Below, one piece after another: positions 21,541-59,638 of a stretch of 64,000 nucleotides of DNA. Position numbers and translations under genes: made by a program. The stretch's first letter is position 1. The number at the start of each line of letters is the position of its first letter. This DNA comes from an uncultured Verrucomicrobiota bacterium (GTDB taxonomy: Bacteria > Verrucomicrobiota > Verrucomicrobiia > Palsa-1439 > CAYGDP01). The notes beneath the pieces are model-generated. The model saw only the letters and a list, made by a program, of their open reading frames with translations, was not told where the DNA came from and ran no database searches. Location: contig CAYGDP010000001.1 of the NCBI GenBank assembly GCA_964348665.1, positions 66,767 through 130,766 of the forward strand, given 5' to 3'.

Positions 21541-21714
21541 AGTTTTCAGTCTTTCCTGAAACAATAATAACTTCGATTTGTGATTTGTCAAGGGGTGATT
21601 GTGATTTTATTCACAAGCGGCTGGACTAGGCGAAATGTTTGAAACACAGCGAGCACGGTTTAACAAGGTGGAAGAGGCCACAAGGCGACAGGAGGATTAA
21701 ATGTTTGAAAAGGG

Positions 21715-23241
21715 TTAGGAGGCGGCGCCGTTGGCGGAAAACGCGGTTAAGGCATCAGAAATTAGAGCGGCGACCCTTTCAGGATGCCAGTCAGGATAGA
21801 AGGCGCGAATCTTTCCTTCGAGGTCAGCGGGGGAGGTGCTGGCCAAAATCATTTGACGCACAGGCGCAAGGCTTCCGCGGAAGGCTCGCGCCAGCTCTGC
21901 CTTACCAGCGCGAGCTATTTCATCGTTCGCCTTCAAAGCTGGCGGTAAAGCTGCGCTCAAAGGCATCATTCCGGCGAACGGAATTTGTGGGACCGGAGCC
22001 TTCCTCTGAAGCGGGAACCCGACACGCTCACTCAAGGTTGGCAGAGCTTCATCGGTAGGCTCGATTCCCGCCGCTGAAATTTTTGCCAATAAATCCCCGG
22101 TCGCCGCTGCCTGTTTGGCAGACTCCGCACCCCAAACAGCCCGGGGCGCACGCCCGATACCCCCATTGATTTTTACCAGTTGATCGAAGAGCTGGTCTTT
22201 CAAAGTCTCGCCAAGCATCTTCCCATCAAACTGGCGAATATCCTCTCGCACGTTCTCCTGTCCAGTCGCGACGCCACTACCAAGTCCGGTACTTTGCGCC
22301 TCACTGGAAAGTGTTTGGCCAACGATCAACTTGGATTTCTCCCTATTACAGATCGAGTGGAATTTCTCGAACGCCTCACCGCTTGATGCGGCCAATGCCT
22401 GCATGATCTCGATTTCGGTTTCGTTCGTTACAACCAAGCCACCGATCCTAGTGGACAAAGCAAACGCACGCTCCAACGTCGTGCGGCTCGCATCATCGGC
22501 CGCGTCATATTTCCCCACCATGAACGGTGCGCCGTACCTTTCCAGAAACCGACCCCACCAATCGCGATCCATCGCCGACAACAGCCACCAAAACAAAATG
22601 GATCGCATCGGTCCACCCCAATTATCCGCCGTAGTGAGCAAATGCCCGCGATGGATGATGTACCGATTGGGATCCGGCTCGTGTTTCGTCGCCAGAATAC
22701 GCCCCTCGGCATCCGTATCACGAATCATCATCACGCCGGATGTGTAATCGAGAAGATCGTAAGGCACTGGCACAAGCTCGCCGATCTCATACTTCACGCC
22801 CTTCATCGTGCTGGGACGAAACACCTTCTCCAAAAGCGCCGATGGCCACAACGTCGAATCCAATAAATGAGAACATGCCTTTATCCAGCCCGACGAATTG
22901 CCCACCAAATTCGTCACCAAACTGCCCGCCTTCACGTCATCATCGTTCTCCTTGTCATGCGGCACGATTGCCATTGGATCACCCAACACCGCAAGCTTAC
23001 GCTTGGCAAATTCCCCCTGGGTGTGGGCATCACTCAAAATTACGTCTCGATACAAAGCGAACAACTGCTGCGTATCGCCCGACTCCGCAGCCCGCAAAAT
23101 TCCGTGCAACCGATCCGCCGTAATCGTCGGCGCCACCGCGCTCAGTTGGTAGCGCTGATTAAAAGTTGTCACCCGCGTCGTCGGCACCTGTGCCGCCGCG
23201 ATCCGCTTCACCGATTCATTCACTTCATTATCTTCAGACAT
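21715..23241 (-). CDS. phage portal protein (Mu gp29-like, DUF935)
   Basis: 508 aa. Sits immediately downstream of the terminase genes. Size and overall character match Mu gp29. Confidence 0.7.
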   Translation of the reverse strand: MSEDNEVNESVKRIAAAQVPTTRVTTFNQRYQLSAVAPTITADRLHGILRAAESGDTQQLFALYRDVILSDAHTQGEFAKRKLAVLGDPMAIVPHDKENDDDVKAGSLVTNLVGNSSGWIKACSHLLDSTLWPSALLEKVFRPSTMKGVKYEIGELVPVPYDLLDYTSGVMMIRDTDAEGRILATKHEPDPNRYIIHRGHLLTTADNWGGPMRSILFWWLLSAMDRDWWGRFLERYGAPFMVGKYDAADDASRTTLERAFALSTRIGGLVVTNETEIEIMQALAASSGEAFEKFHSICNREKSKLIVGQTLSSEAQSTGLGSGVATGQENVREDIRQFDGKMLGETLKDQLFDQLVKINGGIGRAPRAVWGAESAKQAAATGDLLAKISAAGIEPTDEALPTLSERVGFPLQRKAPVPQIPFAGMMPLSAALPPALKANDEIARAGKAELARAFRGSLAPVRQMILASTSPADLEGKIRAFYPDWHPERVAALISDALTAFSANGAAS

Positions 23242-23944
23242 TCAACACCTCCGATGATTCTCGATTTGCCAAAGGATTTTTTACCGACCGGCCCGCCATC
23301 TCTCCGCCGTAGCCCCCCACACGGGCAGCCCGAGCTGACACAGGGCCGCCACCACGCCGTAACGCATGGATACTCAACTTTATTGCCTCAAAACAATCCG
23401 CGTGATTCCCCATCTCATCCACGTCCGCCTCAAACCCACCCTCCACACGCTTCACGCTCCGCAGATCATCCCGCAGCCAAGCCGCTTGCGGCAACAACAC
23501 ACGTCCATCATCCATCAACCCAACGAACTGATTCCCCAAAAACGTCTTCGTCTTCATCTCCTCACCCATGTACTTGACATTCTCGCTGGCGATCACCAGC
23601 TCCACCACAACCTTACCCGCCAATTTACTCCGTAGCGCAGCCGCAAAAAACCGCTCGCTCGTCGCCTCAAGACAAACTCTCCGCACGCGCTTGTTGTCGG
23701 GCAAATCCAGCGCGTACCGCAGAACCTCCTCATAGACCTCGGGCTTGTTTGTCTTGAACCGTACCACGCACCGCACTATGTAATCCCCCCCCACCAACTC
23801 CGTCACCGCGATCGCCGACGGGTTCGACTTTTCCTTCGCCGTCGTCCCGATGTCCCCGCCGATACCGATCAAGCCATTCGTCAATAGACTTTTCCAGCCA
23901 ATCGGCCAAACCTCAGCAGGCGTTATGCGACGATCCGGTTTCAT
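23234..23944 (-). CDS. terminase large subunit, C-terminal nuclease domain (separate ORF)
   Basis: LIGIGGDIGTTAKEKSNPSAIAV matches the TerL nuclease motif (hhGhDxGxxxDxSAhhV). ATGA-coupled to the upstream methyltransferase gene. Confidence 0.6.
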   Translation of the reverse strand: MKPDRRITPAEVWPIGWKSLLTNGLIGIGGDIGTTAKEKSNPSAIAVTELVGGDYIVRCVVRFKTNKPEVYEEVLRYALDLPDNKRVRRVCLEATSERFFAAALRSKLAGKVVVELVIASENVKYMGEEMKTKTFLGNQFVGLMDDGRVLLPQAAWLRDDLRSVKRVEGGFEADVDEMGNHADCFEAIKLSIHALRRGGGPVSARAARVGGYGGEMAGRSVKNPLANRESSEVLNV

Positions 23945-25110
23945 GGATTCAACTCGCGGTACAAAGTGACAAAGGCTTTTGCGGCGACGGCCGGCACGAC
24001 TCCGTTGCCAGCCAATCGCAGTTCATCCACTCGAAAGACACGCCCATGAGCCACGCCACAAAGCGCGGGTTCAAGCGTCGGGTCGTGCGTAAGGACTTTG
24101 CCCCAAGCGTCGAGATCGTTTGGCCGTGGGGGAAATTCAGGCAAGCAACATTCAAAGGTTGTTTGTGGCGACGATGTTGTGATGGGCCTGCATTGTTGCT
24201 CGCATCTTGAACTGTCTCGGTCGGCCAAGTCACTGCATCTCTCGCCAGATACGCATTCCCCGCCTTGCTGCATGGCTTTTGACCGCTGCCCCTCATCGTT
24301 ACATCGTGGGCTTGTGGCGTTGTCCACATCTTTGCCATCCGATCCAGCCCAGCTTCCATCACTCTTTTCCCACCCCGACTCCGAAAGTTTTCCGCTGCCG
24401 GTGACGGCCACATTTTCGCCGCCGTTTGTAGTCCGTCGCCCGCCTTCTCGCTGATCCCTGATCGGTTGTTGTTGCCGTTCACCGATGGCGTCGGCCACTG
24501 AATTGCTTTCCCCAGCAAAGTTGGATTCGATGGGCCATGATGATTGTGCAATCGGCCCCCCGACCCATCCGCCTTGATTGGTGTCGGCCAATTGTCCGAG
24601 GATGAAGACTCGTTTTCGCACATGGCTTGCGCCGACTTCAGCCGCGCTGAATATGCCCCACGCGCGCCGATAACCATCCGCTTCCAAGTCCGCCAGCACT
24701 TTACGGAGGCCGTTGTTGATGTGACCCTCGACATTCTCGAAGAAAACCCAGCGCGGTCGCATCGTTTGATAGCCACGACGGACGGCTGGCCACAAGTTTC
24801 TCTCATCACGGAAGCCGCGCCGCTTTCCCGCGCTGCTGAACGGCTGACACGGATAGCTCGCAATGAAGATGTCCACGATGCCGCGAAAATCTTCTCCTGG
24901 GAAGGTCTTACAATCCGACCAAATAGGCGCTGCGTCCAGGAATCCCTGCTCCATTTTCGCAACCATGTTCGCAACTGCATACGCTTCGATCTCACAGCCA
25001 GCGATAAGCCGCATAGTTGGCAAGACTCGTTTGAGTCCGAGATACATACCGCCGTAGCCGAAGCACCATTCAACGCAATTAAGTTGTTGGGCAGAATCCA
25101 CATGGCTCAC
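23941..25110 (-). CDS. DNA (cytosine-5)-methyltransferase
   Basis: Motif I CFGYGGMYLG (FxGxGG), motif IV SYPCQPFSSAGKRRG, motif VI FENV, motif VIII HVRKRVF. Long Gly/Ser/Asp-rich variable region. C-terminal LAGNGVVPAV (motif X). Confidence 0.8.
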   Translation of the reverse strand: MSHVDSAQQLNCVEWCFGYGGMYLGLKRVLPTMRLIAGCEIEAYAVANMVAKMEQGFLDAAPIWSDCKTFPGEDFRGIVDIFIASYPCQPFSSAGKRRGFRDERNLWPAVRRGYQTMRPRWVFFENVEGHINNGLRKVLADLEADGYRRAWGIFSAAEVGASHVRKRVFILGQLADTNQGGWVGGPIAQSSWPIESNFAGESNSVADAIGERQQQPIRDQREGGRRTTNGGENVAVTGSGKLSESGWEKSDGSWAGSDGKDVDNATSPRCNDEGQRSKAMQQGGECVSGERCSDLADRDSSRCEQQCRPITTSSPQTTFECCLPEFPPRPNDLDAWGKVLTHDPTLEPALCGVAHGRVFRVDELRLAGNGVVPAVAAKAFVTLYRELNP

Positions 25111-25271
25111 GCCGCCTCCTGTTTTTTCAACCCATAGAACCGCTCGACCAAACGCCGGGCATAATCGGACAGCGGCACAAACCCGCGCTCGCTCTCGATC
25201 ACTTGGCCTTGCTTGGCCAACTCGTGAAGCCGATCCCGAATTTGATCGCGGTTCATGCTGTTAATTTTCAT
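25107..25271 (-). CDS. small hypothetical protein (54 aa) in the methyltransferase insertion cassette
   Basis: MKINSMNRDQIRDRLHELAKQGQVIESERGFVPLSDYARRLVERFYGLKKQEAA. ATGA-coupled on both sides. Confidence 0.3.
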   Translation of the reverse strand: MKINSMNRDQIRDRLHELAKQGQVIESERGFVPLSDYARRLVERFYGLKKQEAA

Positions 25272-25471
25272 AGTCTCATGCCATTGATCTCTTCTATGCA
25301 CTTCTGGACTTCCTTCAGGCAACCCATCATCACAGGCGATTTCCCATGAGGTTTGATGACATATCCAACCACAAACCCATTGTCATCACGCACGAATAGC
25401 TCCCAATCAGGCAAGACGGCGAACTCAACCCGATTTGGCTGTTGAATGTTGAGTGTTGGATTCGTTTTCAC
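25268..25471 (-). CDS. small hypothetical protein (67 aa) in the methyltransferase insertion cassette
   Basis: Start overlaps the TerL ATPase-domain stop as ATGA. Confidence 0.3.
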   Translation of the reverse strand: MKTNPTLNIQQPNRVEFAVLPDWELFVRDDNGFVVGYVIKPHGKSPVMMGCLKEVQKCIEEINGMRL

Positions 25472-26418
25472 GCGACGGCGATCTCCTCGGTTACGGCATT
25501 ACACATGCCTTTGTCTTTGCCGCGCTCCATCGCGAGGAAAATGCTTTGCAGCGACAGTGCCGCGACGCCGCCGCGAATAAATCGCAGCCCATAGTTTCTG
25601 TCCCATGCCGCTTTGTCGAACTCACGGGCGCGATGTTCATCGGGGTTGAGTGCATCCCCGCTCTCGCGGTCGTAACAGAGAAGCCCCGCAGCATAGCAGT
25701 CATACACATCGGCGCGATGCACCAATATCCCCGCCTGGCTTCGGTACCAGTTGCCCTCTCGGTTCACGGGAAATTCTTCTTGAGGCGGCACTAACATTTC
25801 CCACGAATAATGCGCATCATCGGGCGGCGGCGTAGTTGCCATCCGCAGGATAAAATTGGGGTTGTTATCAATGAACGGATACACCGCCTCCAAAACATCT
25901 TGTAGTTCCGGGATGCGTCCAAATTCATCCAGAAAAATATCACCTGTCCAACCAACTGCCGTATCGGGATTCGCCGCCACAACTACGCTGCGGCTGTAGC
26001 TGGTGTGCCCGTGAAAAATTTTCGTCTCAAGTTTTTGGTGCTCGAACAGATCGCACACCGCATCAAAATCTAAACCATCCGCGTTGCTCTCAAGCTTCAA
26101 CCCGCTGGCTGAAGCCGCCCCGCGATACCAGTCCAAAAGCTTCATCCACAGACGCGATTCTTTCCGCACGAACTCCACGCCAAGCCGCACGCTCGCGCTC
26201 GCGAAGATGCACTCGTGATCCGGCCGCGACATCATCCGCCGCAAAGCGATCCCCGCCAGCGTCGTTGATTTTCCCGCCTGCCGTCGCCACAACAGACCCG
26301 CACGCCGAAGATCATCGCGCCAAAAAAAAGGCTGTTGATACGCCCGCAACGCGATCAGCGGCGCCGCCTCGATCTGCTCGGCATTTTTTTTCGTTTTCAC
26401 CATCGCGACATTCCTCAA
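25468..26418 (-). CDS. terminase large subunit, N-terminal ATPase domain (separate ORF)
   Basis: Walker A RRQAGKSTT, Walker B IFLDEFGRIP. 316 aa. Confidence 0.7.
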   Translation of the reverse strand: MRNVAMVKTKKNAEQIEAAPLIALRAYQQPFFWRDDLRRAGLLWRRQAGKSTTLAGIALRRMMSRPDHECIFASASVRLGVEFVRKESRLWMKLLDWYRGAASASGLKLESNADGLDFDAVCDLFEHQKLETKIFHGHTSYSRSVVVAANPDTAVGWTGDIFLDEFGRIPELQDVLEAVYPFIDNNPNFILRMATTPPPDDAHYSWEMLVPPQEEFPVNREGNWYRSQAGILVHRADVYDCYAAGLLCYDRESGDALNPDEHRAREFDKAAWDRNYGLRFIRGGVAALSLQSIFLAMERGKDKGMCNAVTEEIAVA

Positions 26419-26420
26419 AT

Positions 26421-26497
26421 TGGTAGCGGGAGTCGGATTTGAACCGACGATCTTTAGGTTATGGGCCTAACGAGATTCCAGGCTTCTCCATCCCGCA
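26421..26497 (-). tRNA. tRNA with CAU anticodon (Met/Ile2-like), phage-encoded
   Basis: Cloverleaf: acceptor 6 bp plus a U1xU72 mismatch, D-stem GAGA/UCUC with GG in the loop, anticodon stem UUAGG/CCUAA, loop CCCAUAA (C33 instead of U33), T-stem GUCGG/CCGAC with loop UUCAAAU, discriminator A and encoded CCA. Confidence 0.6.
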
Positions 26498-26510
26498 AAA
26501 AAATTCGTGT

Positions 26511-27161
26511 TCATCGGCGGCCCTCCGTGGCTGGCTTTTCCCCGAACATCAGCTTGATCAAACGCTCCAGCTTGATCTCGCGGTCCGCGCCGCTCGCCAC
26601 AATCTCCCGCGCCTTCTTGTCGTTAAAGAATTTTTCGAGCAACTCCGCCGTCTCGCGCTGGAACCGTGCTTCCTCGATCGCCAGCTTGCGGCTGGCCTGT
26701 TTGATTTTTTCCAAATCGCCCAAGGCACGCAGAATCGAGGCGTACGCAGCCGGATCTTTGCGCTGAAGCTTCTTGAAGTCCGTCACCGAGAACGAACTCA
26801 GAATATCAACCAGATGCGCCGCCGCCATCGCGCTCCCCGCATCCGACGCCAGATTCGGCAACCCGCTCGACAACGCCTCACGTGAAAGCTCGATGATCCG
26901 CTCCGTCACCTCACGCTTACTCAACCAATCCTGATAGCCGTCTTTCCGCCACTTCGATAGATTCTGGTAGCTGATCTTCTGACCGTCGAACTCCTCGCGC
27001 ATCACGCGCTTTACATCCGGCTGATCGTTGAGCCATTCGAGTATCCGGCGATCCGATTGGCCGTCGCGAATCCGGCGATTGATTTCAGACCGGGTGCTAT
27101 GCGGCAGCCGCCCAATCTTACCGCGGCGCACGCGGCTCTGTAGTGCGAGTCGAGTCGTCAT
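26511..27161 (-). CDS. terminase small subunit-like (Mu gp27-like, DUF3486)
   Basis: RRGKIGRLPHSTRSEINRRIRDGQSDRRILEWLN resembles the Mu gp27 N-terminus (RRSKIDLLPPELR...DG.LTQDEIL..IN). Sits immediately upstream of TerL. Confidence 0.5.
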   Translation of the reverse strand: MTTRLALQSRVRRGKIGRLPHSTRSEINRRIRDGQSDRRILEWLNDQPDVKRVMREEFDGQKISYQNLSKWRKDGYQDWLSKREVTERIIELSREALSSGLPNLASDAGSAMAAAHLVDILSSFSVTDFKKLQRKDPAAYASILRALGDLEKIKQASRKLAIEEARFQRETAELLEKFFNDKKAREIVASGADREIKLERLIKLMFGEKPATEGRR

Positions 27162-28422: not shown

Positions 28423-28460
28423 GCTCCGCAGTGTGCTACGGAAACTGCGGGGGGTCTAAC

Positions 28461-28487
28461 TGCCCTGCGCGCCCTGCGCGCCCTGCG
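28461..28487. repeat. 9-bp tandem repeat (CCCTGCGCG x3)
   Basis: Three perfect tandem copies in the intergenic region. Near-palindromic GC-rich flanks. Confidence 0.5.
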
Positions 28488-28554
28488 CGCGGCAGGCCAG
28501 CGTTACGATTGAAGTTGGAACAAGCTCCGTTGGTCTGGTTGGCAAGGAGAAGAA

Positions 28555-32195: not shown

Positions 32196-32810
32196 TCATT
32201 CAGCAGAGAGACATTCCCACTTTTCAATTGTGGCCTTCGAACCAAGCACGGTGACATAGCTAAAAATCCCAACCTTCTTTGCCCTGAAGATTAACACTTT
32301 CCCATCGGTCATCCCTTCTTGATTTGGATGACCGACAAGCAATACTTTTGTCTGCCCACGATCAGATGGTCCCGGTTGAACCAACAAGCCGTCCGAAATT
32401 ACCTGAATGACTTCGCCGTACCCGTTAAAAATCCCGACCTTCTCATCTTCTTTGCGCTGAGCTTCACGCCTGGCGTTTACCAAATTTCGCGCCTCAACCT
32501 CTTTGCGCTTTTGTTCGGCCTCGACTTTCGCTTTTGCCGAAGCTTCACGGACTTGCTTGGGATCGAGCCGTAAATCATTCTTCAAAACCGTGTCAGTCAG
32601 AGAATCCAATGGGATATACGCCAGCCCCTTTTTATGGCTCATGGAAACTGTCAAGCCATCAACCCGAATCCACTTGGCGTTTTCGTAGACCTTGCCATCA
32701 ATAATCATCCGCTTTCCTGCTGGTTCGGCAGACAGACCGGATGCGCAAAACACCGCTGAACCTATCATCGCCAATATTAGCTTGTGCATTTTCCCTCCCC
32801 TATGGTTCAA
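32196..32810 (-). CDS. secreted hypothetical protein with a charged helical segment
   Basis: Signal peptide MHKLILAMIGSAVFCASGLSA. KAKVEAEQKRKEVEARNLVNARREAQRKEDEK coiled coil. Confidence 0.4.
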   Translation of the reverse strand: MNHRGGKMHKLILAMIGSAVFCASGLSAEPAGKRMIIDGKVYENAKWIRVDGLTVSMSHKKGLAYIPLDSLTDTVLKNDLRLDPKQVREASAKAKVEAEQKRKEVEARNLVNARREAQRKEDEKVGIFNGYGEVIQVISDGLLVQPGPSDRGQTKVLLVGHPNQEGMTDGKVLIFRAKKVGIFSYVTVLGSKATIEKWECLSAE

Positions 32811-33489
32811 ACTTCGTGATCACCGGGCAAGCCTTTAGGATGTCCGCCTTGTCCAGCGTGATCGGTTTATATTTTTCGTTCCGGCTGGTCAAAACGATCT
32901 TGCCAGCGCGCTCGTGGTAGATCTTCAACATCGTCTCTCGCGCTTTCGTCTTCACCACCGCCGCCTGCCCAGAGTGCGGGCGCAAATCCGTCGCGATGAT
33001 CACCCGATCCCCCTCGTTGTAACTCGGCTCCATGCTGTCGCCCTTCACGATGATCCCCACCAAATCATCGCGGCTGCTCTCCACTTTGCGATACTCATCA
33101 ATATGCCAACCCGGATCCGAAAAAATCTCGCCCTGCCCGGCTTGCGCCCACGTTACAACCGGAACCAATTGAACCTTCTTCGATATTAAATAATGCCCGC
33201 GCGATTCGCGGATCACGGATGACGGAAGCGAATCGGTATCGTGTGGGGCTGCTACCTCGCGGGGATTTTTCCCACTCAATAACCATTCTTCCCGGACGCC
33301 GAGCGCCAGCGAAATTCCACCCAAGATGCTGGGATGATAGCTTTTCCCCTTTTCGACGCGCGCGATCGTCTGTTGTTTTTGACTAACCAGCTCTGCGAGC
33401 TTTGCCTGCGAAAGACCCGCGGCCATACGAGCCTCGGCGGCGCGCCCGCCGATTTGCTCTCGAAGCGCCTGTGAAATGCCCCTACTCAT
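32800..33489 (-). CDS. prophage repressor: XRE-type HTH fused to an S24 LexA-like autopeptidase domain
   Basis: N-terminal HTH (LSQAKLAELVSQKQQTIARVEKG). C-terminal GDSMEP (S24 Ser motif) with the downstream Lys (ETMLKIY). Divergent from the Cro/Ner-like gene. Confidence 0.8.
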   Translation of the reverse strand: MSRGISQALREQIGGRAAEARMAAGLSQAKLAELVSQKQQTIARVEKGKSYHPSILGGISLALGVREEWLLSGKNPREVAAPHDTDSLPSSVIRESRGHYLISKKVQLVPVVTWAQAGQGEIFSDPGWHIDEYRKVESSRDDLVGIIVKGDSMEPSYNEGDRVIIATDLRPHSGQAAVVKTKARETMLKIYHERAGKIVLTSRNEKYKPITLDKADILKACPVITKFEP

Positions 33490-34340: not shown

Positions 34341-34586
34341 ATGAGTTACTTAACCGAGATTTTAGATCGCCGCCTGCTACCGATCAGCACGGCAAATCGC
34401 AATCTGAAAACCGCCCTGTATCGGCTGCGAAAGCTTCGTGGTATTCGCGCGACGATGCGGCGCGGCGCATCATTTGGCGTCGCCTGTAGCCTGAATCAGA
34501 CGAATCGCCGCAACGCGCTGATCTGGATCAGGGCTTACAACAAATTCGGCATGGCTGGCCTCGTCGGAAAACATGGAGGAAAATGA
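34341..34586 (+). CDS. small HTH protein (IS3-OrfA/HTH_28-like)
   Basis: ACSLNQTNRRNALIWIRAYNKFGMAGLV resembles the transposase-type HTH. Ribosome-binding site AAGGAGA. ATGA-coupled downstream. Confidence 0.4.
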   Translation: MSYLTEILDRRLLPISTANRNLKTALYRLRKLRGIRATMRRGASFGVACSLNQTNRRNALIWIRAYNKFGMAGLVGKHGGK

Positions 34587-35395
34587 ACGCCAACGGAAAA
34601 ATTCAACACATCAACCCAGAACTTCTTGTTCCGCATCCTTTGACTGAACTCGTACCGATGACGGCGGAGGATGAATCCCAAAATGTCGCGTTAATCGAGA
34701 GCATTCGGGAGCGCGGAATTGACCAGGCAATCTTGGCGGACGCCAGCTATAAAATCCTCGATGGCCGCCATCGGCATCGCGCGGCGAAGACTCTAAAACT
34801 CGCCACTGTGCCGGTTGTAATCCGAGAGGAAACCGAGGCCGCGAGCATCATCTTGGATTCCCTTCTTGCCCGCCGTCACTTTACCAAAAGCGCGCTGGCC
34901 TACATCGCGTTACCGCTCTACGACAAAGCCGCCGCTGAGGGGCGACAGCGTAGGACGGGAGCTAAGCCGAGTGGCTCGGCTTTCGCTATGAAAGCGAGTG
35001 ATTTTTCAACCCGTTTAGGCATCTCAAAAGACACCTTTGAACAAGCTCGCGATGTTCGAGAATTGTTCGCCAAACGCCCTGATTTGAAGGCTGAATTTGA
35101 GCCCAAAATTTTTAGCGGGGATATGAGCCTCTGGAATGTTCGTAGCGCAGCGGGCGGTCGCGACAAAACCAAAGGCGTCGCCCGCAAAGACAGCCAGCGC
35201 ACCTTTGAAGATCTGGTCGGCGATTGGATCGAGCTAGGCGTTCATCGCCTCAAACATTGGGAGAAAATCGGCAGTAAAGCCGATCGGCTCAAACTAACCC
35301 ACAAAGCTGCCGATGCGCTTGTTGGCGCTTTCCCCGACGAATGGTTGCCGGCATTGGAACGCGCGATCCGTGCGCGAAAAGGAGAGACGCGATGA
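34583..35395 (+). CDS. ParB-like nuclease domain protein
   Basis: ILDGRHRHRAA (ParB/sulfiredoxin DGxHR motif). Confidence 0.6.
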   Translation: MNANGKIQHINPELLVPHPLTELVPMTAEDESQNVALIESIRERGIDQAILADASYKILDGRHRHRAAKTLKLATVPVVIREETEAASIILDSLLARRHFTKSALAYIALPLYDKAAAEGRQRRTGAKPSGSAFAMKASDFSTRLGISKDTFEQARDVRELFAKRPDLKAEFEPKIFSGDMSLWNVRSAAGGRDKTKGVARKDSQRTFEDLVGDWIELGVHRLKHWEKIGSKADRLKLTHKAADALVGAFPDEWLPALERAIRARKGETR

Positions 35396-37194
35396 CTGAT
35401 ACACAAACCCGCGAACTGACGCGACGCAATCAAATCGTGTGCGCCGCCATCCCTCTGTTGAATCAGGGCGGCAGCTATGCAGCCGTCGCGCGCAGGCTCG
35501 GCGAGAATAAAGTCTCGCTATATCGGTGGGTATCGGTATTTCGAAAAGGCGGCGATGCGGCGCTTATCCCTCAATCCACCAACAGCGGGCGCAAAGCGGA
35601 CTTCAATCTGACCGACGACGAAGCCGCCGCTCTGCGATATTGGCGGCTGGTGCGCGGCAGCCTGGCCTCGGCGATTCCCGATTTCACGCAGTCGCGCGAG
35701 TGCCGCCCCGAGACGCGCGCGAAAATCCTCGCCATCCAGGACCGTGCCGCGCGCGATCGCCGTATTCCCAACTGGCCGATGTCGCTCCGGCGCGCGGGTC
35801 ATGTAACCGCCGATGATGAAGCCTTGTTCCGCGGCTGCAAACATTTTCAGGAGGTCGAGTTTTGCCAGCGGCGCGGCAACTTCATCGTGGATGAAGCGGG
35901 CAACCAGATCGAACTCGCCCCAAACACGATTTGGGAATCGGACGATATGTCCGTCAACGAACCGTTTTCCTACGTGGATGCCGACACCGGCGAGACCAAA
36001 CTCGGTCGCCAAACTCTTTGGACGCAGGATGTCTATAGCGCCAAATGGATCGGCACGACTCCATTGGGCCGCGCCAAGGACGCCTATCGCGTCGAGGATA
36101 TCGCTGACCACATTTTCAACTGCGTGCTTCAATTCGGGCTGCCGACCATCTGGCGTATCGAGCGCGGCGTGTGGGACAACAACTGGGTGGACGGCTTTGA
36201 GCTGCCCGATGGCTCCCGTTGGGGCGGCCTCGATGCGCTGATGCGCATCCAAAAGGTTTTCAAATCACGCGGCAAAGGCGGCATCGAATCTAACTTCAAT
36301 CTCCTCCAAACCATCAACGCCCACAAATCCACCAGCATTGGTCGCAGCCGGAGCGAGTTCGAGGCCGCCACAAAACTTTTCCTGTCCGCCCAAAAAGGAA
36401 ACACGGAGGCCGCCGCGAAATTCTGGAACATTGCCGAGTGTGCCGATGGCCTGCTCGAAACCGCTCGCGCGGCGGATGCCCGCGCCAAACAACGCCGTGC
36501 CTTCGGACGCGATGTCGTAGTTCCCAACGATCTTTACGCCGCGGCAACCAAACGGGAAATTCCAGCCGATCAATTGTGGCGATTCTGCCCCATCAAGCGC
36601 TCGGCCACTGTGCGCGGAGGTCACGTCGAGGTCAGCGTCAATCATTATCCCCTGCCGTTCCGATTTCGCGTCAACGGCGTTGAGGATCTGCACCTAGAAC
36701 AAGGCTATGCGGTGTTGATTGCGTTCCATCCCGGGCGCGCCCACGAGGGCTGCCACGTTTTCAGCGCCGAGACCGGCAGCCGGAACCGATTCGGTCTCAA
36801 ATTTAGCGAGAAGATTTTGCTCGCCCCGATGGCCGAGGATGCCCCGCAGATTTCCATGAGCCGTGATGAGCAGCAATTTCTGGCCCGGCGCAAAGCCAAC
36901 GCGGCGGCGCGCACCGAGTTCCGCGCCATCGTAGCGGCAGGTACGCGCGGCCGACGCGAATCCATCGCGCGCGATTCCTACGGCAACACGCAGCGGATCG
37001 AGACCCAACAGATTTCGGGGGCGAGCGGGCCGCAAACTGACCGTTTGCAAAATGCGCCCACAAGTGCCGCCCCCGTTATTTCCGCGCCACGCCGCCGCGC
37101 GACGCCAGAATACGACGAGGCGGAGACGCGCAATCGCATCAAGGAAAACGAAGACGCCCTGCGCGAGCAAGGTGTCGTGATCGAAGAATCGTAA
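35392..37194 (+). CDS. Mu-type DDE transposase (MuA-like)
   Basis: 600 aa. N-terminal HTH region, central DDE core (WESDDMS...), Mu-transposase-like C-terminal domain. Follows the repressor and Cro/Ner-like gene, as in Mu. Confidence 0.7.
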   Translation: MTDTQTRELTRRNQIVCAAIPLLNQGGSYAAVARRLGENKVSLYRWVSVFRKGGDAALIPQSTNSGRKADFNLTDDEAAALRYWRLVRGSLASAIPDFTQSRECRPETRAKILAIQDRAARDRRIPNWPMSLRRAGHVTADDEALFRGCKHFQEVEFCQRRGNFIVDEAGNQIELAPNTIWESDDMSVNEPFSYVDADTGETKLGRQTLWTQDVYSAKWIGTTPLGRAKDAYRVEDIADHIFNCVLQFGLPTIWRIERGVWDNNWVDGFELPDGSRWGGLDALMRIQKVFKSRGKGGIESNFNLLQTINAHKSTSIGRSRSEFEAATKLFLSAQKGNTEAAAKFWNIAECADGLLETARAADARAKQRRAFGRDVVVPNDLYAAATKREIPADQLWRFCPIKRSATVRGGHVEVSVNHYPLPFRFRVNGVEDLHLEQGYAVLIAFHPGRAHEGCHVFSAETGSRNRFGLKFSEKILLAPMAEDAPQISMSRDEQQFLARRKANAAARTEFRAIVAAGTRGRRESIARDSYGNTQRIETQQISGASGPQTDRLQNAPTSAAPVISAPRRRATPEYDEAETRNRIKENEDALREQGVVIEES

Positions 37195-37213: not shown

Positions 37214-38419
37214 ATGAGCAAGACAACTGAAGCAGTGAAGATGGGCTGGTGGATGCCGACCAAAATGGCTGGCGTTCGCGCTGTACATCATTACGCGACG
37301 GCAGATCGCGGAGCGGCCTGCGGGAAATGGATTTACCACGGCGATGGCGGTGATCTAGTGGCAGACCAACCCGATAAAGCCTGCCCTAATTGCCTAACAG
37401 CATTGAGTCGCGATAAAAAACCGAACCTCCCAATGCCGCCCACCGAAGGCGAGTATGGCGATCTCGATACCGAGATCCGGGAGTTGACACAATTCATCTA
37501 CGCTTATCAAACGACCGAAGACCTCAGCGACAACGCGTTGGTGAAAAAGTTCCCCGGACTCGGCAGCACGAAGACGTGGACAAAGTTCCTGTCTGGAAAC
37601 ATCGTCGAACTCAACGTCCCTAAATGGATCGTCGAGTATCGCCAAGTTCGCGAGCAGATTGTCGCGCTCCAAACGCGCAGCAAAGACAACGAACCGATTT
37701 ACGACGATCTCAGCGGCTTCATGCGGTTACGCGGCGCCTTCACCGAGGCGCTCCGCGAAGACGGTAACAATCGCCTGATCATCGTTCAAGGACCATCGGG
37801 CAGCGGCAAGACGACGGCGGTGAAGTTGTTGGCGCAGAAATTTGGGCGGCGGATTATTTTCTGCGAGGCCGACGAGACTTGGAAAGAATCGCTGCGCGCC
37901 ATGATGGGCGGCATCCTCAACGCCGTCGGCATCGAGCAGACGCCGCTACAACTCCGCGACTGTGAACGCAAAGTCATCGAGCGATTGTCGGCGCCGCGCG
38001 TTTGTCTGGTGATTGACGAAGCCCATCACCTCGGCCCGCGCACGCTGAACCTCGTCAAGACGATCATCAACCAAACGCCAGGCGAAATCATTTTGCTGGC
38101 GATGGACACGCTTCAGGCGCGTCTCGAATCGAGCGCGTATTTCGAGGCAATGCAGTTGGTCCACAACCGTCTGCTCGAACGCATCCGCCTCGACCGCCTC
38201 GAAGCCGACGACGTGGAGAAAATTCTCAAGCGCCGCCTCACGTGGGAAAATGGAGATTTACACAAAGCCGCCACCGCGTTGCGCGATCAAGCCGTGCGGC
38301 GCGGCCATCTGGCCTTCGTCAAACTCGTCGTGCGCCGCGCCGCACGCCTGGCCGATGGCGACCCGATGACACTCGAAGTTTTTGTGAAGGCCATGAGCCA
38401 GACTATTGATAAACGCTAA
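37214..38419 (+). CDS. MuB-like AAA+ transposition ATPase with N-terminal zinc ribbon
   Basis: Walker A GPSGSGKTT, Walker B LVIDEAHHL. N-terminal C-x5-C...CPNC zinc ribbon. Directly downstream of the transposase. Confidence 0.7.
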   Translation: MSKTTEAVKMGWWMPTKMAGVRAVHHYATADRGAACGKWIYHGDGGDLVADQPDKACPNCLTALSRDKKPNLPMPPTEGEYGDLDTEIRELTQFIYAYQTTEDLSDNALVKKFPGLGSTKTWTKFLSGNIVELNVPKWIVEYRQVREQIVALQTRSKDNEPIYDDLSGFMRLRGAFTEALREDGNNRLIIVQGPSGSGKTTAVKLLAQKFGRRIIFCEADETWKESLRAMMGGILNAVGIEQTPLQLRDCERKVIERLSAPRVCLVIDEAHHLGPRTLNLVKTIINQTPGEIILLAMDTLQARLESSAYFEAMQLVHNRLLERIRLDRLEADDVEKILKRRLTWENGDLHKAATALRDQAVRRGHLAFVKLVVRRAARLADGDPMTLEVFVKAMSQTIDKR

Positions 38420-38645: not shown

Positions 38646-39103
38646 ACCCGATCACCGAAACAAATCTCCCGTCCCCCACGCGTGGGCGGGATGAACACGA
38701 CGCAGCGGCGGCGGGGATCGTGCGCCCCGCGCCGCTCGCGTCGCGTCGCCACGCCCGGTGGCGGCGACGTATGATCACGGCGGGCCGCTGCGCCGATTGC
38801 GGCGACGTGCGGAATCTCTATACGATTCATTGCGACGATTGTCAGGATAAGCGGAACCGCTGGCGCCAACGCAACCGCGGTGGCGATGCATGGCAGCCCG
38901 GTGGCCCCGGGCGCCCACCCAAATGGGCTTGCCTCGCCAAAGTCACGCGACAGCGGGACGAAGGCCGGGCGACACTCAAACGACTTTTGCGAGCTGGGCC
39001 GGAGCCAGCCTTTACCTCCTTGAAGGCCACGGTGGACGCCAGTTCATCGGCAACGACTCAGCTCGCTTCTAATCAACCAAAACAAGAAAGGAAAGCAGCA
39101 TGA
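38642..39103 (+). CDS. hypothetical early protein with CxxC...CxxC zinc finger
   Basis: CADCG...CDDCQ. Arg-rich. Confidence 0.3.
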   Translation: MNPITETNLPSPTRGRDEHDAAAAGIVRPAPLASRRHARWRRRMITAGRCADCGDVRNLYTIHCDDCQDKRNRWRQRNRGGDAWQPGGPGRPPKWACLAKVTRQRDEGRATLKRLLRAGPEPAFTSLKATVDASSSATTQLASNQPKQERKAA

Positions 39104-39651
39104 ACAAGACACGCATCACAATCAAACCCGTCGAGCAACGCGAGGACATGGAGGCATGTCTAGGCGAGCTGGCGAGACATACCATCCAGCGCGACGGACT
39201 CAACGCGGAGATGGAGTTGCGAATCAACGAGATCCGCAAAAAGTACGAAGGCAAAATCGAATCTTTCAGCGAGAAGATCGAAGTCTGCACCGAAGTCCTC
39301 AAAGATTGGGCGGAACGCCATCCCGATCAATTCGGGAAAAAGAAATCCATCGAGACAGTCCACGGCTCTGTGGGATTCCGATTCGGCCAACCGCAAGTCA
39401 AGACCAAGCTCAAGCTGACCTGGGCGATCGTGCTCGAAAAAATCAAGGCGCTATCCCTCAACGCAAAGTACGTCCGCGTCAAAGAAGAAGCCAACAAGGA
39501 AGCCATCCTCGCCGACCGCGACAAGAAACTCAATGGACCGCACGGCGAATACACGATCGAAGATCTCGGCGTCCGCATTGTTCAGGACGAAGCTTTCTTC
39601 ATCGAAATCAAACGGGAGCCAGTCGGCGAACCCGTCGCCAAAGCCGCATAA
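39100..39651 (+). CDS. gam: host-nuclease inhibitor Gam (Mu Gam family)
   Basis: C-terminal KEEANKEAILADRDKKLNGPHGEYTIEDLGVRIVQDEAFFIEIKRE aligns with Mu Gam KQEINKEAILLEPKAVAGV...IEDFSIIPFEQE. Confidence 0.6.
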   Translation: MNKTRITIKPVEQREDMEACLGELARHTIQRDGLNAEMELRINEIRKKYEGKIESFSEKIEVCTEVLKDWAERHPDQFGKKKSIETVHGSVGFRFGQPQVKTKLKLTWAIVLEKIKALSLNAKYVRVKEEANKEAILADRDKKLNGPHGEYTIEDLGVRIVQDEAFFIEIKREPVGEPVAKAA

Positions 39652-50902: not shown

Positions 50903-50910
50903 GTTGGGCA

Positions 50911-52439: not shown

Positions 52440-52441
52440 CC

Positions 52442-53730: not shown

Positions 53731-53734
53731 AGCC

Positions 53735-54814: not shown

Positions 54815-54888
54815 TCCCGCGCGCACCGCGCGCAGGGCGAGCAGGGTTTTTTGCTATGGGCGGGTGTCTACGGTAGCTTACGGCTGCT

Positions 54889-55830: not shown

Positions 55831-55833
55831 AAA

Positions 55834-58449
55834 ATGAACCGTTTTACTTCATACATTCAAGGCCGACATGTAAGCGCGACGGCGCCGAAGGATGGGCACA
55901 GCTTTGTTTTCAACAAAGCAACGGGTGAGTACGATGTAAAATTCGATGGTCAACGCGTCTTGTTGCCGGTCAGGCTGGTCAGAGAATCGGCGCTGCCAGC
56001 GTTCACGCACTCAAACGGTGTGTTGACCGCATCGGCAAACGGGGCATTCCCGTCAACGGATAGCGTTACTCCAGCGCTCAACGACGAAATCGTGGTGGTG
56101 GGTGAGACTGGAGCCAACAAAAAATACAACGGCCCATATAAGTTGACCGACGCCGGAAGCGCGGGAACACCATGGGTGCTAACGCGGCGGTCGGACGCTA
56201 ACGAGAATCACGAGTTTCAGCCAGGCATGTTGATCGGCGTGATGGAGGGCACTCTAAACGCCGGAACGGTTTGGCAATTCTCGAATACGACCGAGCCTGT
56301 ATTGGGCACGACTGATCTTGGTTTCCGAAAGGCGAGCGGTTCCGGCGGCGTTCCTGGTGGAGCCAACCGAGAGATTCAGTATAACAATAATGGCGTCTTC
56401 GGCGGCAGTGCTCGCTACAAATTTCTCGACGACGGCGTTACGTTCGTATTATTTGATCACGCTGATCAAGTCACACTGGATCGGTGGACCGTGGATGGTT
56501 TGGCGCATGGTTTTACCGATCAAGCTCCCACCGACACATTCTTTTTGATCGGTGTCTACAACTTAGCTACTGCTGGCGGTGTCTGGCTGGCAGGCTTGGC
56601 AGCGGATACCAATCCCGCATGGGGTCAATATGGTGCAAACATCGGCGCGAGCGCTACGCTCCCTGTGCAGCGTTTTAGCGCGTCCAAAAAGAGTGGAGCG
56701 GATTTTGCCGCGTGCGCAGCCACAGACTTGATGTATGAGTTTGCAAATAACGAGAGCACGCCACGGCTACGGATCTTCGGCGATGGGATGGTTGATTTCA
56801 TAAAGCCTGATGCCAGCGCCGCGATGTTTCGATTTCGGATGACGGGGTTAGACCATGGGATTACGGGCATTGCCCCCACGGATGTTTGGGGTGTAATACA
56901 GCAATCAGCGGCCGCTGGCGGGGTTTATGTGCTTGGCTTGGGGTCTAATACCGGCCAGGTGCTATATTTCGATGCGATAAACACTGGCGCAAGCACAACT
57001 GTCGCTCCAGTTCATTTCAACATCGCGAAAAAATCCGGCACCGGATCAGCGGCATGTGCGGCAGGCGATCTCATTTTCAAGATACAAAACTACGCGACGA
57101 GCGCGCTTCAATTGTATGGCGATGGCAGCATGACGTTGGCGGGTGCATTGACCGTTCAGGGTAATCTGACGATCAATGGAACGACGACAACCATTGATTC
57201 GACGACCCTCGATGTCGAGGACCGGGTGATACACGTCAACCATACCACCGGGGCCGACACCCCCGTCCCTACCGCAATTTGCGGGGTGGGCGTCCACCGC
57301 GGTGCTTCCGCGGGAGTTGCTCGCGATCACGCTGCGTTTCTGTGGGACGAGGCAAACACCAGGTTTATCCTCGCATGGAATACTGGTGGTGATGATTCCA
57401 CGATCGGTGCGCAACTTGCGCTGCACGCACTTTCGTTCACAGGTTCCGGCGCTGGTCTTACATCACTCAACGCTGGTTCATTGTCGTCGGGCACGGTCCC
57501 AACCGCTCGTCTTGGAAGCGGCACGGCAGATAGCACTACAGTTTTGCGCGGCGACTCAACATGGGCAACTTTCACCAGTCCGCCGTTCTCGGATGGTTCA
57601 GCAATTCTGAAAGGCAGCGCCGATGCCACGAAGCTTTTGCGGTTCGAGATTGATGGATTTACGACGGGAACGACGCGAGAGATCATCGTGCCAAATGCGG
57701 ACGATACGATGGCGGTGTTGGCAGCCGCGCAGACATTCACCAATAAAACCCTCACAAGCCCAAAGATCGGCACGGGAATTTATGACACAAACGGAAATGA
57801 ATTGTTTTTGCTTACCGCTACGGCCAGCGCGGTGAATGAATTGACTTATAACAACGCTGCAACGGGCGCAAATCCTACGTGGGCGTCCACTGGTGGTGAT
57901 GCCAATATTGGCCAAGACTTCAAGATGAAGGGGACCGGAGCGGTCAGGATACTAAACGCTACCGGTGATGATGTGCTTCATTTTCAGGCGTCCAATGCTA
58001 CGTTGCGCGTTGGGAAATCAGGGGTAACGGGTGGAATCATCACAATTGATTCTGGCGGCTCAATGCGTAATTGGGCAGCGCAGGGTGGCATTGAGTTTAT
58101 CAACTCGGGCGCCGGGGCGTACAAGCCGATCGCGGCGGATTTCTTCGAGTCTGTAAGCGCAGGGACTTTGACGGCCCCAGCCTATCGCTTCAGGGATGAA
58201 ACGGCTTTAGGCTTCTATCGGGTTGGATCCAGCGAAATCGGGGCGACAGGGGAAATTTTCACTGTCGGGAAAACGAATGCGCTCGCTAGAATCCGCGGGC
58301 GGGGGTTTTACACGGCCAATCCATCTGATCCGCCAGATGATCAATGGGATTTGCAGGTTATTGACACTGGTGCAACGGTCGTTTTGCGTTGTCGTTACAG
58401 AGACGTCAGCGCAGCCTCAACAAAAACCGGAGATATTCCATTGGCGTAA
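55834..58449 (+). CDS. tail fibre/host-specificity protein
   Basis: 871 aa, Gly/Thr/Ala-rich with repetitive beta-helix-like segments. Last large structural gene. Confidence 0.5.
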   Translation: MNRFTSYIQGRHVSATAPKDGHSFVFNKATGEYDVKFDGQRVLLPVRLVRESALPAFTHSNGVLTASANGAFPSTDSVTPALNDEIVVVGETGANKKYNGPYKLTDAGSAGTPWVLTRRSDANENHEFQPGMLIGVMEGTLNAGTVWQFSNTTEPVLGTTDLGFRKASGSGGVPGGANREIQYNNNGVFGGSARYKFLDDGVTFVLFDHADQVTLDRWTVDGLAHGFTDQAPTDTFFLIGVYNLATAGGVWLAGLAADTNPAWGQYGANIGASATLPVQRFSASKKSGADFAACAATDLMYEFANNESTPRLRIFGDGMVDFIKPDASAAMFRFRMTGLDHGITGIAPTDVWGVIQQSAAAGGVYVLGLGSNTGQVLYFDAINTGASTTVAPVHFNIAKKSGTGSAACAAGDLIFKIQNYATSALQLYGDGSMTLAGALTVQGNLTINGTTTTIDSTTLDVEDRVIHVNHTTGADTPVPTAICGVGVHRGASAGVARDHAAFLWDEANTRFILAWNTGGDDSTIGAQLALHALSFTGSGAGLTSLNAGSLSSGTVPTARLGSGTADSTTVLRGDSTWATFTSPPFSDGSAILKGSADATKLLRFEIDGFTTGTTREIIVPNADDTMAVLAAAQTFTNKTLTSPKIGTGIYDTNGNELFLLTATASAVNELTYNNAATGANPTWASTGGDANIGQDFKMKGTGAVRILNATGDDVLHFQASNATLRVGKSGVTGGIITIDSGGSMRNWAAQGGIEFINSGAGAYKPIAADFFESVSAGTLTAPAYRFRDETALGFYRVGSSEIGATGEIFTVGKTNALARIRGRGFYTANPSDPPDDQWDLQVIDTGATVVLRCRYRDVSAASTKTGDIPLA

Positions 58450-58478
58450 TATGTCCACCCATTTCGAGAAAGGAAACC

Positions 58479-58673
58479 ATGAAGATTGAACTCCAGAAGA
58501 TTCCCAAAGACGACCCGGCAGCGATGCAGAATGAAAAACTGTCGGATTATCACGCGGACTTAAAGAAACGATTGGCCAAGGCTGTGGCCGACAATGACGC
58601 CACCTACGCCGTGGTAGTGGCGCTACAACAAAAGAAAAAGGACTGCGAGGCAGTGATGCTCGCCAGATTTTAA
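58479..58673 (+). CDS. small hypothetical protein
   Basis: Ribosome-binding site AAGGAAACC. 64 aa. Confidence 0.3.
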   Translation: MKIELQKIPKDDPAAMQNEKLSDYHADLKKRLAKAVADNDATYAVVVALQQKKKDCEAVMLARF

Positions 58674-58675
58674 CC

Positions 58676-59152
58676 ATGAAAAAATCAGACCTATTGCGAT
58701 TCCATGATGGCCTGGTGGATGTCATGCATCTCGGGGGTGTAGAGTTCAGTTACGCCGTCAACCTGAACTACTTTGCCATTCGTGACCAAGTGGCCGCGTT
58801 ACGCAAATCAATCGAGCCGGGTGAGGATTACGAGGCTTTCGAGAGAGAGAGGCTTGAGCTTTGCAAGAAGCACGCGAAAAAAGACGACAAGGGTAAGCCC
58901 ATGACAATCCCGATACCGGGTGGGATCCGGTACGTGTTTGGCGATTGCGTCGACCTCTTCGAGAAGCAACTTACCGTCCTCCGCAAGAAGCACAAATCCG
59001 CGATCGAGGCGCAAGAAAAGCGCGAGAAGGATTACGCGGAAATCCTGAAACAGGATTTCCAGTTTGCGGTCTCCATGGTCAAGCCGGAGAAATGCCCCAA
59101 GGAGATCACCGGGGCGAAAATGATGGCGATTTGGGAGATGGTTGAAAAGTAA
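58676..59152 (+). CDS. hypothetical protein (last prophage gene)
   Basis: 158 aa, Lys/Glu-rich. Confidence 0.35.
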   Translation: MKKSDLLRFHDGLVDVMHLGGVEFSYAVNLNYFAIRDQVAALRKSIEPGEDYEAFERERLELCKKHAKKDDKGKPMTIPIPGGIRYVFGDCVDLFEKQLTVLRKKHKSAIEAQEKREKDYAEILKQDFQFAVSMVKPEKCPKEITGAKMMAIWEMVEK

Positions 59153-59638
59153 TATGCGGAAGCTCCGCGCCAACCCCGCGACGATCCTGCGAACCTCCCG
59201 CCACCCTTCTCCAAGGCTAAATCCATCCAGCGTCCCGCACCCTTTTCGGGTCAAAAATTGACCCTTTTCAAACTTTTTGGCGGGTTACAGCGGGGAAGGT
59301 GGAATGGTAGCCGAGCTTGGATTCGAATTGTCGCCGCGCGCTCAAAACGCCAGCGTTGTTTCCGAGTTTCAGCGCGCTATTCTTGGCAGCCAGTTGAATG
59401 GCTTCTTTTTTTAAAGTGGCGCAGATCCAACGATTGCTGTACTGCCGCCAGCGTTAACGATAGACAAACTCGTTCCTATTTCATAGGACCCTTCCACGTT
59501 CATCCACTCTCATAGCGCCTGCGCCCAGACTATCATCCCAGCCCCTCACCTTTAACGTGCCGCTCGCTCGTCCGCAGCACGAAAAACGGGAATCGGACGA
59601 GTCGGGGGGCTCGTCTCTACCTCTTTTTAGAGGTTGCT

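Follow-up and report, generated by a model that had tools for sequence, protein, structure and literature searches.

In the genome of an uncultured Verrucomicrobiota bacterium, a long run of phage genes lies between a gene for a GbsR/MarR-family regulator and a gene for a GH81 glycoside hydrolase. The questions raised by this locus are whether the run is one complete prophage, how it entered the chromosome, and at which nucleotides it begins and ends. To answer them, we analysed a 64,000-nucleotide (nt) stretch of contig CAYGDP010000001.1, called the window here, with positions counted from its first letter. Positions 21621 or 21622 to 59289 are, with a probability of about 0.88, a complete 37.7-kb Mu-like transposable prophage in the intergenic DNA between gbsR and the GH81 gene of a Verrucomicrobiota chromosome. 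The first-pass annotation of the window had proposed Mu-type prophage termini with inverted transposase-site-like repeats at this place, and the gene content, the MuA/TnsB fold of the transposase and the conservation of the end motif in relatives bear this proposal out.

Transposase and conserved end sites

The predicted transposition proteins are encoded by two adjoining genes.

35341..37194, plus strand: transposase, 617 amino acids (aa), with an N-terminal helix-turn-helix (HTH) and a MuA/TnsB-type RNase H-like core (PHROG 310 'transposase', E = 8.5e-11)
37214..38419, plus strand: MuB-like AAA+ transposition ATPase, adjoining the transposase (PHROG 296 'DNA transposition protein', E = 2e-25; Pfam AAA_22)

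The database copy of the transposase begins 17 codons later (600 aa). Its structure was modelled with AlphaFold from 43 homologues (pLDDT 85.9), and the model was used for Foldseek searches. The Mu transpososome (4FCY) and the TnsB proteins of Tn7 and of the type V-K CRISPR-associated transposon (CAST) were aligned over about 530–555 columns. The E values for 4FCY, CAST and Tn7 TnsB, and IstA ranged from 1e-15 to 1e-7; weaker matches were obtained with IstA and retroviral integrases, and 1BCO also matched. From the alignments to the Mu transpososome and TnsB, the protein is assigned to the MuA/TnsB type by fold, and its catalytic assignment rests on the predicted fold. The hhalign comparison with MuA was not significant (E = 0.09), and the assignments of catalytic residues are therefore tentative. 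In the model, invariant acidic residues occupy the canonical topological positions: D201/D202 on β1, and E316 on the helix following E274. E274 itself, at the end of β4, is invariant in the 43 homologues within the motif IERGxWEN, where MuA has IDNTRG. DDE enzymes normally carry the second Asp at the equivalent position, and the model tentatively suggests a D-E-E catalytic triad instead of D-D-E. Pfam detected N-terminal HTH domains alone, both in the window transposase and in the 43 homologues. Close relatives of the transposase were not found in viral contigs, and tblastn gave no match in 50,697 deposited phage genomes.

With these proteins, the element would most likely have integrated by DDE transposition, the MuB-like ATPase acting as a helper. 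The transposase would bind repeated ACCCTTTTCAAAC-type sites placed in inverted orientation at the two ends, two or more at the left end and one and a half at the right. It would cut 16 nt outside the terminal site and join the 3' ends to staggered target positions, leaving a short duplication, and the window copy may still be mobile. The features at the ends are as follows.

21617..21620, no strand: candidate left duplication copy GCGG (5-bp version GCGGC, 21617-21621), from register enumeration and flank symmetry
21621..21646, minus strand: left terminal transposase-binding site (predicted), box TGTTTCAAAC plus 16 nt ATTTCGCCTAGTCCAG
21696..21715, minus strand: left inner binding site (predicted) ACCCTTTTCAAACATTTAAT, adjoining the portal stop codon
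59239..59247, plus strand: ACCCTTTTC, a partial inner site that precedes the terminal copy by 22 nt, by direct reading
59248..59264, no strand: hairpin GGGTCAA-AAA-TTGACCC, with no conservation in relatives
59261..59289, plus strand: right terminal binding site (predicted), ACCCTTTTCAAAC plus 16 nt TTTTTGGCGGGTTACA; its last two bases, 59288-59289, are CA
59290..59293, no strand: candidate right duplication copy GCGG (5-bp version GCGGG, 59290-59294), from direct reading and register enumeration

Direct reading of the window found the end strings where the first-pass annotation had placed them: GCGGC (21617-21621), TG (21622-21623), GTTTGAAA (21637-21644) and a second left copy AATGTTTGAAAAGGGT (21700-21715) on the left; ACCCTTTTCAAAC (59261-59273), TTTCAAAC (59266-59273), CA (59288-59289) and GCGGG (59290-59294) on the right. 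The 13-nt match said to link the two ends is also real: the 13-mer has just two exact occurrences in the 64 kb, one per end, in inverted orientation. The sequence TTTCAAACWTTT has three exact matches in the window, every one at the element ends. When random region pairs of the same size were drawn from the window, an inverted exact match of at least 13 nt arose in 8 of 3000 trials. The distance from TG or CA to the box was given as 15 nt at the left end but 16 nt at the right end, and both values are correct; the one-base difference was passed over without discussion. In the left terminal site, the CA found 15 nt from the box corresponds to the plus-strand TG at 21622-21623. The 'perfect palindrome' inside the right end was misread: GGGTCAAAAATTGACCC forms a hairpin whose 7-bp stem (GGGTCAA/TTGACCC) encloses a 3-nt loop, and it lies at 59248-59264, not at 59247-59263. 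This hairpin is not conserved in the far ends of two relatives (L288 and L289) and was not called by the terminator scan. We dropped it as a functional element for these reasons; it is probably incidental or a weak terminator.

Relatives of the prophage were found through portal homologues and the contigs carrying them; they are designated as loci with L-numbers, 44 of them from IMG/VR. Downstream of the portal stop codon, the relatives have one or two (T)GACCCTTTTCA..C-type sites and, farther out, a terminal box followed by 16 nt and then by unrelated sequence. The motif (T)GACCCTTTTC follows the portal stop in many of them, as at the left inner site of the window. Three pairs of loci, each with the same phage in different flanks, define the terminus and show that these phages have transposed to unrelated sites, while the window phage was seen at one site only. 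L106 and L108 are identical up to ...CTACGCTCTCA and diverge beyond it, so that the terminus is the box plus 16 nt. L117 and L119 are identical up to ...CCGCCTGTCA and diverge after CA; the box is not placeable in this pair, which confirms the CA but not the 16-nt spacing. L312 and L313 are identical through TATTTCAAAC plus ATTTCTCCGGTAGTAA, with a terminus 16 nt from the box that ends in AA, and the spacing is therefore kept where the CA is not. This last phage occurs at positions 3009-3290 of both loci (Logan SRR32456857 and SRR32456859), at two sites in sister samples in which it was evidently active, and its terminus reads ...GGTAGTAA, not CA.

The far, non-portal ends of two relatives were obtained by contig walking. 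That of L288 reads ...TTTCAAAC ATTACGCTCGGTTACG and that of L289 reads ...TTCCATTC ATTTATCTCGGTTACA. Together with the far end of L263, they closely resemble the right end of the window, ...TTTCAAAC TTTTTGGCGGGTTACA, that is, ...CGGTTAC(A).

Weight matrices were built from the relatives alone, excluding the window, and the matrix for the terminal 26-mer was derived from 18 termini. The site matrix scored 29.6 bits at the right end (59261, plus strand) and 24.9 bits at the left end (21696, minus strand), and the next best match in the window reached 13.0 bits. The terminal matrix scored 27.7 bits at 59264-59289 (plus strand) and 19.7 bits at 21621-21646 (minus strand), the next best being 13.3 bits. 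Both matrices thus place the proposed ends first and second in the 64-kb window, with the right end as the best match of each. Position 16 of the terminus is A in 11 of the 18 matrix termini, and further independent termini with CA at this position were found in L113, L128, L263 and L308. The right end at CA, 59288-59289, is therefore well supported, in exact register with the termini of the relatives. As judged from these alignments, the motif is a conserved end site of a large, uncharacterised group of related phages. Scanning viral contigs with the box alone (ACCCTTTTCAAACNTTT) gave 91 matches, 89 of which were by chance.

Left end and probable target-site duplication

The left end is uncertain by one base, at 21621 or 21622, with 21621 most likely. 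Three registers of the junctions were enumerated. An element from 21621 to 59289 has the ends CT...CA, a perfect 4-bp GCGG on both sides, and a spacing of 16 nt from the box at both ends. From 21622 to 59289, the termini chosen in the first-pass annotation, the ends are TG...CA, the flanks GCGGC and GCGGG match at 4 of 5 positions, and box and end are spaced by 15 nt at the left and by 16 nt at the right. From 21621 to 59288, the ends are CT...AC with a perfect 5-bp AGCGG, and the spacing is 16 nt on the left and 15 nt on the right. We give the register with the left end at 21621, the 4-bp GCGG duplication and the 16-nt spacing at both ends a little better than an even chance. Of the annotated termini, 59289 stands in the exact family register, but for the left one the 16-nt rule points to 21621. 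Likewise, the pentamers of the proposed 5-bp duplication with one mismatch are present and match at four of five bases, but a perfect 4-bp GCGG is likelier from the symmetry of the flanks. The 4-of-5 match by itself is weak evidence, having a chance probability of 0.019 per register.

The symmetry was seen in the relatives. Flank positions 2 and 3 are a pyrimidine followed by a purine (Y-R) in 20 of 27 distinct related termini (p about 1e-7; 7 of 9 in the independent subset). Position 3 is a purine in 24 of the 27, and a symmetric 5-bp target could not have such a position at its centre. The information content of the first 19 flanks is limited to positions 1–4, and the reverse-complement symmetry of the relatives' flanks is best at a length of 4. 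GCGG directly adjoins the terminus not only in the window but also in L094, L113 and L288, and L085 and L289 have the complementary CCGC there; GCGG agrees with the pattern N-Y-R-N. The duplication made by this family is probably 4 bp at an N-Y-R-N target, a length that we infer from the flank symmetry.

Several results weigh against the account given so far. Under the 16-nt rule, the left terminus reads ...CCAG-3' and not CA, with which most relatives end. The left terminal heptamer is AGTC-CA as compared with GGTCTCA in the family, and restoring one T (GTC[T]CA) lifts the left-end score from 19.7 to 31.3 bits, which favours a left end at 21622. When the 4-bp symmetry was checked by a column-permutation control, the result (0.22) was not significant. 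No relative gave a clean pair of ends with a duplication: the IMG/VR pairs L095/L289 and L099/L288 show none of any length, probably due to chimeric flanks. Neither 80 related genomes nor two metagenome scans yielded an empty-site allele, and we infer the junctions. In these searches, the GH81 protein scan of species-representative genomes gave 80 loci, none with gbsR nearby; the DNA pattern of the empty site had 0 matches in metagenomes, and the left-flank 20-mer had 24, all unrelated. Finally, a DDE domain in the transposase was not detected by Pfam or by sequence searches of solved structures with a single sequence or a profile; Glu in place of the second Asp may explain the missing Pfam match.

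The exact register of the first-pass annotation is the strongest of the alternatives, though we regard it as unlikely. It holds that the prophage spans 21622-59289 as 5'-TG...CA-3', that it made a 5-bp duplication GCGGC/GCGGG with one mismatch, and that the left heptamer has lost one base; the window copy may then be slightly eroded and perhaps immobilised. CA-3' would then stand at both ends, CA being the commonest terminus in the relatives as described above, and the higher left-end score with one T restored also speaks for this reading. MuA, TnsB and CAST transposases also make 5-bp duplications (for Mu, PMC8705779). On the other hand, two separate lesions no more than 4 nt from the junction are needed in a prophage that is otherwise intact. 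In the family, the flanks have their axis of symmetry at positions 2|3 and not at position 3, and the L312/L313 phage keeps the 16-nt spacing without a CA terminus.

An element from 21621 to 59288 with non-canonical 5'-CT...AC-3' ends is improbable. No perfect direct repeat of the flanks is longer than its duplication AGCGG (21616-20 and 59289-93), for which the 5-of-5 chance is 0.0014 per register, and GGTTAC is conserved in four ends where the next base varies (A, G, A, T). The same-phage pairs, however, agree up to and including position 16, which is A in most relatives, and the right end would sit 15 nt from the box. By the target symmetry, a terminus at position 15 would also imply a 6-bp duplication whose sixth base should mirror the frequent A; it does not, T occurring at flank position 5 in 4 of 27 termini.

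With the left end at 21621 and the 4-bp duplication, the pre-insertion allele between gbsR and the GH81 gene would read ...CACAAGCGGGGAAGG..., and it would read the same with the left end at 21622 if the original base was G. The uninterrupted allele is expected as ...TTATTCACAAGCGGGGAAGGTGG..., with the junction in the form ...CACAAGCGG(G)GAAGG.... A 5-bp GCGGC target would instead predict ...AAGCGGCGAAGG....

Genes, gene order and host flanks

The element is 37,668–37,669 bp long, inside the range of 36–39 kb reported for transposable phages (PMC8705779). Besides the transposase and the ATPase, the following phage genes were recognised.

21715..23241, minus strand: portal protein, Mu-type (gp29 family), the last gene at the left end (Pfam Portal_Mu, E = 1.7e-61)
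23234..26418, minus strand: large terminase in two parts, C-half 23234-23944 and N-half 25468-26418 (Pfam Terminase_6C, Terminase_6N; PHROG 2)
23941-25110, minus strand: C5 DNA methylase, inserted at the terminase split with two small open reading frames (ORFs) (Pfam DNA_methylase)
26421..26497, minus strand: phage tRNA-Met (CAT anticodon), between the small terminase gene and the terminase N-half (ARAGORN)
26511..27161, minus strand: small terminase subunit (PHROG 426)
32800..33489, minus strand: repressor, HTH plus S24 peptidase, CI/LexA-like, the first gene of the leftward arm (Pfam Peptidase_S24, HTH_3)
34583..35395, plus strand: ParB-N-domain protein, just upstream of the transposase and in the same place in relatives (Pfam ParB_N; PHROGs; synteny)
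39100..39651, plus strand: Mu Gam-like protein (Pfam Phage_Mu_Gam, E = 7.4e-32)
44196-45767, plus strand: Mu F (Pfam Phage_Mu_F)
46042-46527, plus strand: gpG-like protein (Pfam Phage_tail_S)
46600-47484, plus strand: protease I (Pfam Mu-like_Pro)
48124-49035, plus strand: major head protein gpT (Pfam Mu-like_gpT)
51090-52439, plus strand: tape measure protein (PHROG tape-measure families)
52442-58449, plus strand: tail genes
58676-59152, plus strand: last phage gene, small (PHROGs matched in the whole block 51090-59152: tape-measure families, PHROG 16867 and others, PHROG 1401)

The leftward arm thus runs from the repressor through the lysis region, TerS and the split TerL to the portal gene at the left end, and the rightward arm carries early genes, the transposase, MuB, Gam, head genes and tail genes. 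A repressor of the S24 type points to induction by the SOS response. A tail sheath was not detected and a Mor/C homologue was not recognised in the element, and a homologue search with the tail protein at 52442-53185 returned the query itself as the sole match.

In phage Mu, the portal gene is directly followed by F, whereas in the window the two are 21 kb apart on opposite strands. This could mean that the left arm (21.7–33.5 kb: portal, terminase, repressor) and the right arm are separate, either as two remnants or through a host inversion, and that 21622 is no true terminus; inverting 21.7–44.1 kb would give back the Mu order, and one relative, L112, has the canonical order. The relatives make such an origin very improbable. 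The layout of transposase arm, repressor, TerS, TerL, portal and end recurs in dozens of them independently, and the repressor/ParB/transposase/MuB arm is usually divergent from the TerS-TerL-portal block, as it is in the window. Three independent prophages have the portal gene as their final phage gene, with unrelated host genes next to it. The 44 IMG/VR loci keep the order TerS, TerL-N, TerL-C, portal, with the portal stop mostly 100–400 nt from host DNA or the contig end, and many of these contigs are 33–41 kb, close to the 37.67-kb element. In addition, a portal or terminase gene is lacking from the right arm, the family end sites lie at exactly these two boundaries with no other site above 13.3 bits in the window, and separated TerS-TerL-portal blocks are known from Leptospira transposable prophages (PMC8705779). 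The portal gene is terminal in about 45 relatives, so that the unusual gene order is, on this comparison, native to a widespread, uncharacterised phage group. The few named relatives belong to Verrucomicrobiota or Kiritimatiellia, and the host of the window prophage is a member of Verrucomicrobiota.

The terminase gene is split at the boundary of the ATPase and nuclease domains. An insert of about 1.6 kb lies exactly at the split in the window and in L101, while L086 is divided at the same point with no insert; L083 has an unsplit TerL of 514 aa, to which the split protein was aligned. The insert could be a mobile cassette, or the split could be tolerated or programmed. Cargo-like genes were observed at 29383-32147 and 42169-42807, encoding a HEAT-repeat protein (282 aa), a 639-aa protein without a family match and a Pol-beta-type nucleotidyltransferase; they possibly have defence or anti-defence functions. 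The first two belong to the leftward arm, among other genes there without an assigned role. Repeats of CCCTGCGCG (about three copies) at 28463-28492 match the reverse complement of 54817-54846, at a distance of 26 kb, with 90% identity over 30 nt, both inside the prophage.

The host features next to the element are these.

21034..21540, minus strand: GbsR/MarR-family regulator gene (Pfam MarR_2/TrmB)
21599..21616, no strand: host palindrome TTGTGATTTTATTCACAA, 18 nt, upstream of the gbsR promoter TTGACA/TATTAT (minus strand), by direct reading
59639..62362, minus strand: GH81 glycoside hydrolase gene (Pfam Glyco_hydro81C, Glyco_hydro_81)

The palindrome is the last clearly host sequence before the element. 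The phage end lies merely 4–5 nt beyond it, and the host gbsR promoter was therefore left intact; a similar promoter layout was seen in an unrelated metagenome contig (L230). The exact GbsR protein was found on 4 contigs, which are essentially of the same strain, and the phage portal gene adjoins it in all of them. The best relatives of the GH81 protein are in metagenome-assembled genomes of Verrucomicrobiota, with identity of at most 74%.

Outside the right end, at 59296-59410, the minus strand resembles a tRNA T-arm plus ACCA (TTCGAATCC...GGCTACCA), where no tRNA was called. On the plus strand, a terminator-like hairpin with a T-run lies at 59388-59403, with no obvious gene to terminate. Either a small host transcript or the remnant of a tRNA may account for the region. 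At 18195-21773 of the relative L089, which has transposase, MuB and Gam as well, a tyrosine recombinase gene directly precedes the one for a 1050-aa Mu F fusion protein.

That T-arm-like string and the recombinase of L089 are what could be said for an ordinary integrase-type temperate prophage with coincidentally similar ends, which is hardly credible here: no integrase domain was found among the element ORFs scanned against Pfam, no tRNA or tmRNA was called at either flank by tRNA and Rfam scans, no att-type direct repeat was present (the longest direct repeat, 9 nt, is at chance level), transposase, MuB and Gam are encoded, and the relatives occupy many different sites.

Relation to Mu and other transposing elements

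By function and gene content, the prophage is a Mu-like transposable phage, and it is not a Muvirus in the strict sense. As in Mu, a DDE transposase of the MuA fold precedes a MuB-type ATPase, Gam is encoded, and a repressor gene stands at the switch region. Both phages have head genes of the families gp29 (portal), F, G, I and T, and several inverted repeats at each end, where transposase binding is predicted here. The right end is CA-3' in each, the genome measures about 37 kb, and insertion occurs at many sites, as seen in the relatives. It differs from Mu in the transposase, which has about 16–17% identity in structural alignments and no match to Pfam rve or Mu-transposase. [quoted passage not shown] The duplication is also different, probably 4 bp as compared with 5 bp in Mu.

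A match of the ends to the MuA sites L1-L3/R1-R3, which the first-pass annotation had named as a check, was not obtained: by eye, only TG and the short words TTGAA and CGAAA are shared with the Mu left end, in a different order. Because the two transposases share less than 20% identity, the E. coli MuA sites are not a valid standard for this phage. The relevant standard is conservation among its own relatives, and the end sites are conserved there.

The transposable phages of Pseudomonas (B3/D3112 group) include the nearest deposited portal relatives, at 25–30% identity. The hosts of the Pseudomonas and Leptospira transposable phages are Proteobacteria and Spirochaetes, and their transposases are recognisable by sequence as Mu, B3 or Tn552 types (PMC8705779), unlike that of the window. 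Transposable phages vary in the duplication (5 bp in Mu, 6 bp in B3), in the terminal dinucleotides (TA as an exception to TG-CA) and in the position of TerS-TerL-portal (PMC8705779). Pseudomonas phage Bise (L306, OR683401.1) was considered as an analogue with a terminal portal gene and was rejected. In its genome, an arm of Ner, transposase, terminase, portal, F and G is on the strand opposite to an arm of repressor, protease, capsid and tail genes; this resembles the canonical order of Mu after an inversion of the left 15 kb, either as a real variant or through an assembly orientation issue.

The best structural matches of the transposase are TnsB of Tn7 and of type V-K CAST (8RDU, 8EA3, 8AA5, 7SVW and 9BW1; E down to 7e-15). 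These systems also have an AAA+ partner and multiple end-binding repeats. However, Tn7 and CAST are not phages, they have 5-bp duplications and TGT...ACA ends, and the window contains no TnsA, TnsC, TniQ or Cas genes. The accessible literature contains no description of a portal gene at the genome end or of the ACCCTTTTCAAAC site, although the clade may have been catalogued earlier.

The prophage boundaries are fixed to within one base, so that 37.7 kb can be cleanly separated from host DNA in annotation. The comparison also gives the first end-site consensus for a widespread Mu-like group, namely ACCCTTTTCAAAC-type sites with the terminus 16 nt past the outermost one. This group is without a cultured or deposited representative, and its transposase is missed by current domain models. 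It is possible, at less than even odds, that the prophage represents a large clade of uncultured transposable phages in which the Mu mechanism has been varied, with a diverged transposase that may use D-E-E, a cut set by the 16-nt distance, a 4-bp N-Y-R-N duplication and a portal gene at the genome end. That the clade is a mechanistic variant of Mu transposition is plausible but unproven; otherwise, the element is an ordinary prophage, correctly recognised. If the 4-bp duplication and the substitution of Glu for Asp hold, the known range of MuA/TnsB-type transposition would be widened. The defined ends and proteins would then be a ready mini-transposon, and possibly a source of transposon tools for Verrucomicrobiota, a phylum with few genetic tools.

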